DNA of 64,000 bases from Escherichia coli (GTDB taxonomy: Bacteria > Pseudomonadota > Gammaproteobacteria > Enterobacterales > Enterobacteriaceae): NCBI RefSeq assembly GCF_013122565.1, contig NZ_CP053258.1, one strand, 5' to 3'. The notes below the pieces were generated by a model. It was given only the letters and a program-made list of their open reading frames with translations, had not been told where the DNA came from and did no database searches. The number at the start of each line of letters is the position of its first letter. The stretch's first letter is position 1. Both the position numbers and the translations under genes were made by a program. Of this stretch, positions 15,414-16,964 are shown one piece after another.

Positions 15414-16964
15414 TTATACCGTAAACCCTAACATCATCCCCGTATCTTCATGCTCCAGCAGATGGCAGTGCGCCATATAAGCATGTTCTTTCGGTGCGTC
15501 GTGATTAAACTTCACCAGCACTTCACTGACATTGCCTTCTACCTTAACGGTATCTTTCCAGCCCGCGCGATGAGCCGCTGGCGGTTTGCCATTTTCTGAC
15601 AAGATACGGAACTGCGTGCCGTGAATATGGAACGGATGCAGCATCATGTCGCCCACGCCAGAGATAACCCAACGTTCGTACTGCCCTTTCGCCGCCGCAA
15701 ACATCGGCTTATTCATATCAAACGCCTGACCGTTGATTTTATTGGCATGGTGGAAATCGAACTTCCCGCCGTGGTTCATATGATTCATATTGCCGTGCCC
15801 CATATGGCCCATCATCTGGCTGTGATCCATTCCGGCCATCGCCTGATCGCCATATTTCTCCATTAGCATCTGCATCCCCATCATATCGAGCATCGGGTCC
15901 ATAGAAAGTTGCAGCTTGCGTACCGTCAGCCCTTCCAGCGAAGGTAACGCAGGCAGGCTACTTAATGTGTCTGGCAAAGCACCGGAGGCACTAATAGCAA
16001 TCGGCTGAATCCGCATTACCGGATGCGGCTTGTCAAACGGTGCAATCGCCATCCCCATCTGGCTGACCGGCAGCGTCACCAGGTCAAATGGTTTGTTGTC
16101 GTTAACCTCCACCAGCACTTCAAAACGCTCGCCCATCAGCACCGGCAGTTCGCTCACCTTCACCGGTTCAGGTAGCAGACCACCGTCGCTGGCAATCACA
16201 TAAAGCGGGCGATTGTCGCTGGTGGCGAAATTGAGCGAGCGGGCATTACAGCCATTGAGCAAACGCAGGCGCAGCCAACCACGCGGGGCAGCGTGTTGCG
16301 GGTAGATTGCACCGTTGGTCAGCAACGTATCGCCAAACCAGCCCACGGCGGCGGTCATCACATCCAGTTGATAATCAATCTGCCCGTCGGCGCTAAATTT
16401 CTTATCCTGAACGATCACCGGAACATCATCGATACCCCACTGTTTTGGCAGCATTAATTTCAGGATCTCGTCATCTTCAATTACCACCAGCCCAGCCAGC
16501 CCCATCGCCACCTGTCGCCCGGTCTTGCCATGTTGATGTGGATGGAACCAGCAGGTAGCGGCAGGTTGATCAACGTTCAACGTCACCGAGCGCTTGCCAC
16601 CTGGCGGAATAATTCCCTGTGGGCCGCCGTCGACTTCACCCGGTACTTCCAGCCCGTGCCAGTGCAACGTCGTCTCTTCCGTCAGTTGGTTATAGATATC
16701 AACCGTTACCGCTTTGCCGCGCTGTAATTTCACCGCCGGCCCCAGCAGATTGCCGTTATAGCCCCAGGTAGTTGCAGTTTTCTCGCCAAAGGTAGACTGA
16801 CCTGCGCCAATAGTTAACTGAATGCGATTACGGGCATCGGTCGTGAGCAAATCAGGGATCGGTAACGTTGGGCGTTCCGCCGCAAAGACTGCACGGCTCC
16901 ACAGTGGCAAGGCTGAAGCCACACCCAGTGCGACGGAATATTTCAAGAAATCACGACGTTGCAT
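15414..16964 (-). CDS. cueO: Periplasmic multicopper oxidase (cuprous oxidase)
   Basis: Recognised CueO; Tat signal [28 protein letters not shown]; Met-rich segment; Cu sites HCHLLEH; start trimmed to ATG 16962-16964. Confidence 0.95.

Follow-up and report, generated by a model that had tools for sequence, protein, structure and literature searches.

A gene on the minus strand of the Escherichia coli window analysed here (64,000 nucleotides; RefSeq assembly GCF_013122565.1, contig NZ_CP053258.1) encodes a multicopper oxidase with a stretch rich in methionine and histidine, which raises the question of what this stretch is and how it contributes to the handling of copper. The original prediction, made from the letters of the DNA, named the gene cueO and described the stretch as a putative binding segment for extra Cu(I) whose length and composition may tune copper tolerance. 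In our reading the segment is very probably the Met-rich insert of CueO, the cuprous oxidase of the CueR regulon, where it acts as a lid and as a source of Cu5 ligands and would also act as a Cu(I) "antenna". Unless stated otherwise, the features described below lie on the minus strand, and positions are those of the window.

The open reading frame spans 15414-17003. Taking the ATG at 16964, which is preceded by AAGGA, as the start gives a protein of 516 aa (MQRRDFLK…), with the stop codon at 15414-15416; the coding sequence, 15414-16964, thus specifies a multicopper (cuprous) oxidase that is exported to the periplasm by the Tat system. With the NCBIfam equivalog NF008205, "multicopper oxidase CueO", it scores 983.5 bits (cutoff 525), and the match runs end to end, residues 1-516 aligning to profile positions 1-528 of 529. 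Pfam identifies the three cupredoxin domains (PF07732, PF00394 and PF07731, that is, Cu-oxidase_3, Cu-oxidase and Cu-oxidase_2). The T1 ligands H443, C500, H505 and M510 are all present, as are all eight histidines of the trinuclear cluster (H101, H103, H141, H143, H446, H448, H499 and H501). In a PDB search the window protein proved the same as the E. coli CueO chains (1KV7, 1N68, 3OD3, 3NT0 and others) except for G61E. A codon-by-codon comparison with K-12 MG1655 cueO likewise gives 35 synonymous changes and G61E as the single non-synonymous one, so that 515 of 516 residues are shared; G61E lies outside the insert. An identical protein exists in public data (P0001 = WP_001189617.1, E. coli CueO), and G61E is therefore a natural allele. 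The gene is present and annotated as cueO in 5424 of 5426 complete E. coli genomes, and its neighbourhood, gcd-cueO-yacC-speED-acnB, is the standard arrangement, with the gcd-cueO-yacC-speED context found in K-12 as well.

Two related families were considered and rejected. The PcoA/CopA profile (TIGR01480, copper_res_A) scores 116.1 bits against a cutoff of 478.95. FtsP/SufI (NF008135) scores 297.4 bits against 581, and its match is limited to residues 2-291. FtsP is not known to have the copper ligands, all of which are present in the window protein. By every defining feature that can be checked in a sequence, then, the window protein is CueO, and the name originally given to the gene stands on the profile match, the PDB identity save for G61E and the annotation in E. 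coli genomes. The K-12 protein, which differs from that of the window only by G61E, has been shown to oxidise Cu(I) and to contribute to copper tolerance (PMC11494321).

The signals expected of an exported, copper-regulated protein are also found. Residues 1-28 (MQRRDFLK…AFA/AE; 16881-16964) read as a Tat signal peptide: the RR motif is visible in the sequence, Pfam TAT_signal is matched with E = 2.9e-4 and 21.1 bits, slightly below its cutoff of 22.7, and mature crystallised chains (e.g., 1kv7) begin at residue 29. Upstream of the gene, a regular expression locates a MerR-type promoter at 17010-17040, consisting of TTGACC, a 19-nt spacer and TATGCT, and a perfect dyad, CCTTCCC-N5-GGGAAGG (17018-17036), lies inside the spacer. 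CueR regulon promoters (copA, cueO) carry CCTTCC-N7-GGAAGG and a 19-bp spacer. As a sequence match, we take the dyad and spacer upstream of cueO to represent the CueR operator architecture, and the element is presumed to be the CueR operator; K-12 cueO has the same CueR-type promoter.

The segment originally placed at 15760-15910 corresponds to an exact 46-residue peptide, residues 355-400 (MDPML…NHGG), encoded at 15765-15902. Of its residues 14 are Met, 5 are His and 8 are Gly; the rest of CueO, 470 residues long, has 15 Met and 18 His (hypergeometric P for Met in the insert, 8e-9). It is the Met-richest 46-aa window of the protein, and in 20,000 protein shuffles not one gives any 46-aa window with at least 14 Met. 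Pfam places no domain over residues 355-398, since Cu-oxidase ends at 293 and Cu-oxidase_2 begins at 399, and PDB alignments to multicopper oxidases other than CueO (laccases, CotA and related proteins) break at ~353-357. Because of the shuffle test, the Pfam gap and these breaks, the Met enrichment is real and far beyond chance, and the segment is an insert relative to the family fold. It is identical in all 46 residues to the crystallised K-12 protein, with one synonymous codon difference and no non-synonymous one. The insert is overlapped by a His-rich open reading frame of 81 aa on the plus strand (15621-15866), which we did not accept as an antisense gene: its histidines merely mirror methionines of the other strand, the His codon CAT being the reverse complement of ATG (Met).

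The insert divides into two parts. Residues 355-388 (15801-15902) comprise a conserved portion, a helix and the start of a loop, which carries ligands of Cu5, Cu6 and Cu7; residues of this portion have been described as the "Met-rich helix" (PMC6155172). Residues 389-400 (15765-15800) form a variable tail of 12 aa composed of His, Met, Gly and Asn, which falls within the loop after the helix (~370-398), for which most CueO structures show no electron density (PMC6155172).

That such a segment is missing from most multicopper oxidases had been part of the original prediction, and the survey of relatives agrees: it is absent or shorter in most of them. We examined 118 full-length representatives of 50%-identity clusters, drawn from the best 150 matches of an exhaustive HMMER search, and measured the insert as the residues aligned between E. 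coli L353 and D403. Among these representatives its length ranges from 0 to 71 aa with a median of 5; it is at most 10 aa in 83 of the 118 and at most 4 aa in 56, and reaches at least 40 aa in only 6. An alignment-free count gives a similar picture, as a 46-aa window with at least 10 Met occurs in only 8/118 representatives, 6 of these 8 having it at the E. coli position. The long inserts of these relatives are unrelated in sequence and often rich in Met and Gly, and of those of at least 20 aa, 9/21 have at least 20% Met. The long inserts thus point to convergent composition and not to conserved sequence. Beyond Escherichia and Citrobacter, and so for genera such as Salmonella, Klebsiella and Enterobacter, the wider variation rests on the cluster representatives and the literature. 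According to the published comparison, a Met-rich domain covering Cu-T1 sets CueO-like enzymes apart from laccases and bilirubin oxidases (PMC11494321).

Extra copper binding by the segment had also been proposed, and the copper sites defined by crystallography are all represented in the window. Crystals reveal Cu5 (M355, D360, D439, M441), Cu6 (M358, M362) and Cu7 (M364, M368, M376), the latter two seen only in Cu(I)-soaked crystals of an inactive variant (PMC11494321). Each of these ligands is present here. The codons for D439, M440 and M441 are at 15642-15650, D439 and M441 being the domain-3 half of Cu5, and the three residues, like M355-M368, are invariant in an 11-sequence alignment covering Escherichia and Citrobacter.

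The functional meaning of these sites has been addressed by Contaldo et al. (2024) with the variants ΔMet358-407, ΔMet361-396, ΔCu5, ΔCu6 and ΔCu7 (PMC11494321). [quoted passage not shown] One could imagine that Cu6 and Cu7 form an obligatory, defined relay through which every substrate Cu(I) moves towards Cu5 and T1. In the crystal 3NT0, which was soaked in Cu(I), both sites are indeed filled; the methionines that form them do not vary in Escherichia and Citrobacter; and an earlier study, in the summary given in PMC11494321, saw large activity losses upon mutation of Cu6 and Cu7. However, ΔCu6, ΔCu7 and ΔCu6/7 are close to wild type whether assayed in solution, by electrochemistry or in vivo, so that both sites are dispensable, and ΔMet361-396, which is without both sites, is still active (PMC11494321). 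These data largely refute an obligatory relay, and we consider it very unlikely.

Deletion of the insert has a more graded outcome. With Cu(I)-BCA, 10-20% of the activity is left in ΔMet358-407 and ΔMet361-396, and with the weaker complex Cu(I)-Ferene 57-75%; both variants are close to wild type with electrogenerated Cu(I) and in complementation of a ΔcusB ΔcueO strain (PMC11494321). Insert removal has been reported to lower Cu(I) oxidation by about 90% and to raise phenol oxidase activity ~33-fold, both as cited in PMC11494321. The PDB entries 2yxv and 2yxw are engineered insert-deletion variants (446 aa, two aligned stretches). The authors of the 2024 study proposed that a pool of methionines pulls Cu(I) off strong chelators through transient complexes and hands it to Cu5, and they found no stable Cu(I) on the insert once excess Cu(I) was removed, nor extra Cu(I) by ICP after washing (PMC11494321).

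The working model that we favour follows these published data. The insert stands at the start of cupredoxin domain 3, with residues ~355-388 as a conserved amphipathic Met-rich helix over the type-1 copper and residues ~389-400 as a flexible His/Met/Gly/Asn tail. As the published deletion work shows, it buries the T1 site, so that bulky phenolic substrates are kept out, and, as the published mutagenesis shows, it gives two of the four ligands of the labile Cu5 site (M355 and D360), the others being D439 and M441. Cu5 is the only site that binds and oxidises substrate Cu(I), the electron passing to T1 and on to the trinuclear cluster, where O2 is reduced. The solvent-exposed thioethers, and probably the tail histidines as well, would form a collective antenna that holds Cu(I) transiently and with low specificity; kinetic data obtained with weaker and stronger chelators suggest that this antenna strips Cu(I) from strong chelators and passes it to Cu5. 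It would not be needed when Cu(I) is free or weakly bound, and deletion of the insert would therefore barely alter tolerance in standard assays.

The same deletion data can also be read in terms of a steric lid, such that the main selected role is to keep organics off T1 and thereby make a specific metallo-oxidase, copper binding by the methionines being incidental. The rise in phenol oxidase activity just cited, obtained with an insert removed as in the engineered variant 2yxv, is what a lid predicts; moreover, the conserved portion of the insert is a helix, and a G304K mutant in which this helix is displaced gains laccase activity (PMC6155172). A lid, however, does not need 30% Met, the inserts of distant relatives are repeatedly Met-rich despite unrelated sequence, and activity with chelated Cu(I) scales with Met content. 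As the main selected role we consider the lid possible but rather doubtful; it is compatible with the preferred reading, of which it forms one part, and does not exclude it.

A different view is that the insert protects the cell as a sponge, through stoichiometric sequestration of periplasmic Cu(I) that is independent of catalysis. Its many soft ligands and the strong induction of CueO by copper would suit such a role, which was raised as a possibility in PMC12510620. The same study, however, shows that protection under anaerobic conditions is due to catalysis and not to copper binding by the domain: the catalytic mutant ΔCu-T1 fails to protect, and with ΔMet361-396 protection is about that of wild type, even anaerobically (PMC12510620). 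With no extra Cu(I) retained after washing in the ICP measurements noted above, we regard sequestration as highly improbable.

The authors of the 2024 study also put forward an alternative in which the insert serves maturation or docking, acquiring Cu for the four sites of the apo-enzyme under copper scarcity, or taking Cu(I) from CusF, CopA or another periplasmic protein (PMC11494321). This would explain how the insert can be strongly conserved in Escherichia and yet have a weak tolerance phenotype. Against maturation, the deletion variants were produced with a Cu-T1 and a trinuclear cluster functional enough for activity, and against docking, the authors argue that a larger defect in vivo would be expected (PMC11494321). 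We consider either form of this explanation unlikely. The preferred reading, in which lid, Cu5 ligands and antenna are combined, can be set beside the natural variation of the insert.

Within E. coli the insert is essentially fixed. A 261-nt insert probe, for which a single place covering at least 80% of its length was required, matches 5423 of the 5426 complete genomes at ≥95% nucleotide identity, and every sampled intact match in E. coli spans exactly 261 nt. Several apparent exceptions were examined and rejected. H25, matched at 91% coverage in two pieces, is not a natural deletion of the insert: it has lost 137 bp in domain 2, outside the insert (corresponding to window positions 16157-16293), and the loss shifts the reading frame. 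H55, with 78% identity over the insert, is not a variant insert and comes from a decayed cueO pseudogene in strain L37. Two proteins of 470-471 aa, P0008 and P0011, are not natural ΔMet forms either, for they miss part of domain 2 and have the insert intact. A further protein, P0002, is duplicated internally and cut short at its C-terminus. All three proteins probably reflect assembly errors or pseudogenes.

When one genome of each bacterial species was searched with a degenerate DNA pattern matching the helix, 25 loci were recovered, all of them in Escherichia or Citrobacter, 6 being from Escherichia. The 46-aa insert, with at most two substitutions, is present in all five extracted Escherichia genomes (E. 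coli, E. albertii, E. whittamii and two further species). The sixth Escherichia locus, E. coli E69, shares these 46 residues apart from a single substitution, N397S, and falls outside the length count since F404S removes the FDFH anchor. In Citrobacter species genomes the insert is 49, 51, 56, 64, 66, 68 or 69 aa long, and one C. freundii protein (P0040) has an insert of 74 aa, of which 40 aa are tail. The first 34 residues of the insert are constant in length across 21 Escherichia and Citrobacter species genomes, and all length change occurs after residue 388, the tail being 12 aa in the five Escherichia species genomes and 15-35 aa in those of Citrobacter. The proposal that length and composition vary between species therefore holds, with 46 aa in Escherichia and 49-74 aa in Citrobacter, and variation is also described in PMC12041951.

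The source of this variation can be read from the DNA. The Citrobacter tail is encoded by 15-nt tandem repeats (HGNMN), with 24- and 30-nt higher-order units; in C. gillenii the tail repeat has 3.8 copies with 83% match, and the C. freundii proteins P0018 and P0040 differ by exactly one HGNMN unit. Slippage of such 15-nt units lengthens and shortens the tail in related genera, changing the number of Met and His donors, and we infer that this slippage may matter for fitness. Tandem Repeats Finder detects no repeat in E. coli cueO. Slippage therefore fits Citrobacter and not this window. Our literature search, which was incomplete in coverage, found no paper on repeat-driven expansion of the CueO tail in Citrobacter.

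A repeat-encoded tail invites the view that the insert is a functionless low-complexity expansion, slippage debris that is tolerated in a surface loop. The tail length varies freely in Citrobacter, the loop is disordered (PMC6155172) and deletion of the insert is tolerated in vivo (PMC11494321). Yet all 46 residues are frozen in Escherichia, the one codon difference from K-12 is synonymous, unrelated inserts at this position are convergently Met-rich, and the kinetic effects with chelated Cu(I) are clear. On these comparisons, debris is excluded for the helix and unlikely for the Escherichia tail, and could apply at most to the tail; as an account of the insert it is scarcely credible. The sequence results fit the published picture: the helix, which is conserved, forms the lid and contributes to Cu5, and the tail that follows is constrained in composition and free in length. 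A further suggestion is that the disordered tail (389-400 here) could act as an evolvable "dial" for the stripping of Cu(I) from strong chelators in particular niches, the repeat having decayed in Escherichia, where the 12 aa would be under purifying selection. We offer it tentatively, and think it less probable than not by some way.

Comparison with known systems places the insert more precisely. The K-12 enzyme (YacK) is the nearest, with structures 1KV7, 1N68, 3OD3 and 3NT0 and the deletion variant 2YXV. Citrobacter CueO (C. freundii, C. portucalensis, C. youngae, C. gillenii and C. amalonaticus) is 83-87% identical with an identical Met-rich helix, and differs in its tail of HGNMN-type pentapeptide units. 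The orthologue from Hafnia alvei (8R4F; ΔMet form 8R4H) has the same fold, Cu5 ligands and position of the Met-rich domain, although its domain exceeds that of E. coli by 22 aa and 6 Met (PMC12041951). PcoA/CopA of plasmid copper resistance are likewise Tat-exported three-domain periplasmic multicopper oxidases. At the same place between the domains, PcoA carries a Met-rich stretch of its own, whose GMDHSxMAG motifs are similar to CueO 378-386; this stretch is longer than that of CueO and has no recognisable counterpart of the CueO helix, and plasmid PcoA is only ~26% identical to the window protein, over 55-59% of its length (the N-terminal half). Flexible Met-rich elements near T1 also occur in the hairpin of the Thermus thermophilus laccase (2XU9), the loop of Aquifex McoA and the Met/His-rich C-terminal tails of lactic-acid-bacteria laccases, but these differ from the CueO insert in location, length and structure. 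Deletion of the Met-rich hairpin of Thermus CueO had no measurable effect on cuprous or phenol oxidase activity, as this work is cited in PMC11494321.

The suggestion that the insert may tune copper tolerance is only weakly borne out. In vitro, length does tune activity with strongly chelated Cu(I): Contaldo et al. (2025) showed that Hafnia alvei CueO outperforms the E. coli enzyme as chelation strength rises (PMC12041951). In vivo, however, deletion variants complement well, and the additional 22 aa of the Hafnia domain bring no gain, its tolerance being equal to that of E. coli CueO (PMC12041951). The ΔMet variants are somewhat less protective in vivo than wild type (PMC12041951), and insert deletion costs little copper tolerance under aerobic or anaerobic conditions (PMC11494321, PMC12510620). 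The two checks that had been suggested are both in the literature. Alignment of orthologues is published, and here too it shows that length differs between species; the copper-sensitivity assay of a Met-rich deletion is published as well, with the drop in activity on chelated Cu(I) to 10-20% on the one hand and little loss of tolerance in vivo on the other (PMC11494321). An insert invariant in length, with a deletion that leaves activity and tolerance unaffected, is not what is found, because length varies between species and deletion lowers cuprous oxidase activity.

Because both the alignment and the deletion assay had already been published, the finding is real but already known, and adds no new biology; the insert has been established for exactly this protein through structures since 2002, deletion variants since 2007 and dissection in 2024-2025. 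The general statement that Met-rich domains are highly diverse has likewise been made (PMC11494321, PMC12041951). The details added here are that the insert is fixed at 46 aa in Escherichia, and that length change in Citrobacter is confined to the disordered tail encoded by 15-nt repeats. Met-rich motifs recur in copper-handling proteins such as PcoA, CopA, CusF and Ctr1. CueO is one of three copper-defence systems of E. coli, and copper tolerance aids survival in hosts and on copper surfaces. Within this defence, it is the Met-rich insert that makes an oxidase specific for Cu(I) out of a generic fold like that of laccases. If the tail does act as a dial, the number of its repeat copies would help to determine copper handling and would evolve fast.

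The tail of the Met/His-rich insert of CueO, which follows residue 388 within the insert at residues 355–400, is encoded in Citrobacter species by 15-nt tandem repeats that specify two to four copies of an HGNMN unit, and these are accompanied by higher-order units of 24 and 30 nt. These tails are found at positions 9818–9899 of locus L013, with further examples at L004, L006, L009 and L024–L027. The Citrobacter inserts span 49–69 residues, and one C. freundii protein (P0040) reaches 74; two C. freundii CueO proteins differ by exactly one HGNMN unit. In each of the five Escherichia species genomes measured, the insert is 46 residues long and no tail repeat is detectable.

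A motif resembling another part of the CueO insert occurs in PcoA, the multicopper oxidase of the plasmid copper-resistance system. In the protein encoded on pKPC_CAV1335 (pcoA, L029 1483–3300), a Met-rich stretch of ∼75 residues separates domains 2 and 3 and holds the motifs GMDHGQMAG and GMDHSLMAG, which are similar to the CueO insert at about residues 377–386. The motif is common to both proteins despite only ∼26% identity between the two families.

Antisense to the insert, on the plus strand at 15621–15866, lies an 81-residue His-rich open reading frame. We rejected this frame as a gene and regard it as a mirror artifact, since every Met codon (ATG) reads as a His codon (CAT) on the opposite strand. 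The HM dipeptides at the insert are encoded by CATATG, which is itself a DNA palindrome.

The CueO encoded here differs from the K-12 and crystallized protein by a single amino acid change, G61E (GAG in place of GGG at codon 61; 16782–16784, minus strand), alongside 35 synonymous differences from the K-12 gene. G61E is a natural allele that occurs in other public E. coli proteins, and the nearest cueO genes at the nucleotide level (99.8%) are those of O157:H7 strains. The promoter, at 17010–17040 on the minus strand, consists of TTGACC and TATGCT separated by a 19-nt spacer and contains a perfect 7-5-7 dyad, CCTTCCCGTAAGGGGAAGG. We take this layout, matched by sequence, to be the MerR/CueR operator architecture.

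Among complete E. coli genomes, the closest match to positions 1–25000 reaches only 96.8% identity, as compared to 99.8% for cueO alone. A cluster encoding a fimbrial usher and a fimbrial subunit lies at the left end and may be the divergent part of this region. The short matches to this region recur at many places in each genome, with a median of 26, which suggests REP-type repeats. Elsewhere, Rfam matches are seen to tp2 (30916–31029), naRNA4 (42304–42381), STnc40 (42802–42871) and PssrA, "Plasmid-encoded Shigella sRNA A" (48518–48607, minus strand, 105 bits), the last of which lies inside the ftsZ coding region, towards its 5′ end, as judged by synteny with locus L031.

Natural losses of cueO are rare in E. 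coli, and 2 of 5426 genomes gave no match whatsoever to the gene. In strain A134_1EC (L001), domain 2 is disrupted by a frameshifting deletion of 137 bp, corresponding to 16157–16293, and strain L37 (L002) has a copy carrying frameshifts and an internal stop. Plasmid records carry cueO at ≥99% identity in 18 cases in all. On the 98.5 kb IncY E. coli plasmid pE6474.2 (L030, NZ_CP116983.1), the encoded protein is 100% identical to the allele described here, and within 4636–10253 cueO is flanked by two transposase genes of ISVsa5, an IS4-family element. This arrangement resembles a composite transposon that has picked up the cueO gene from a chromosome.
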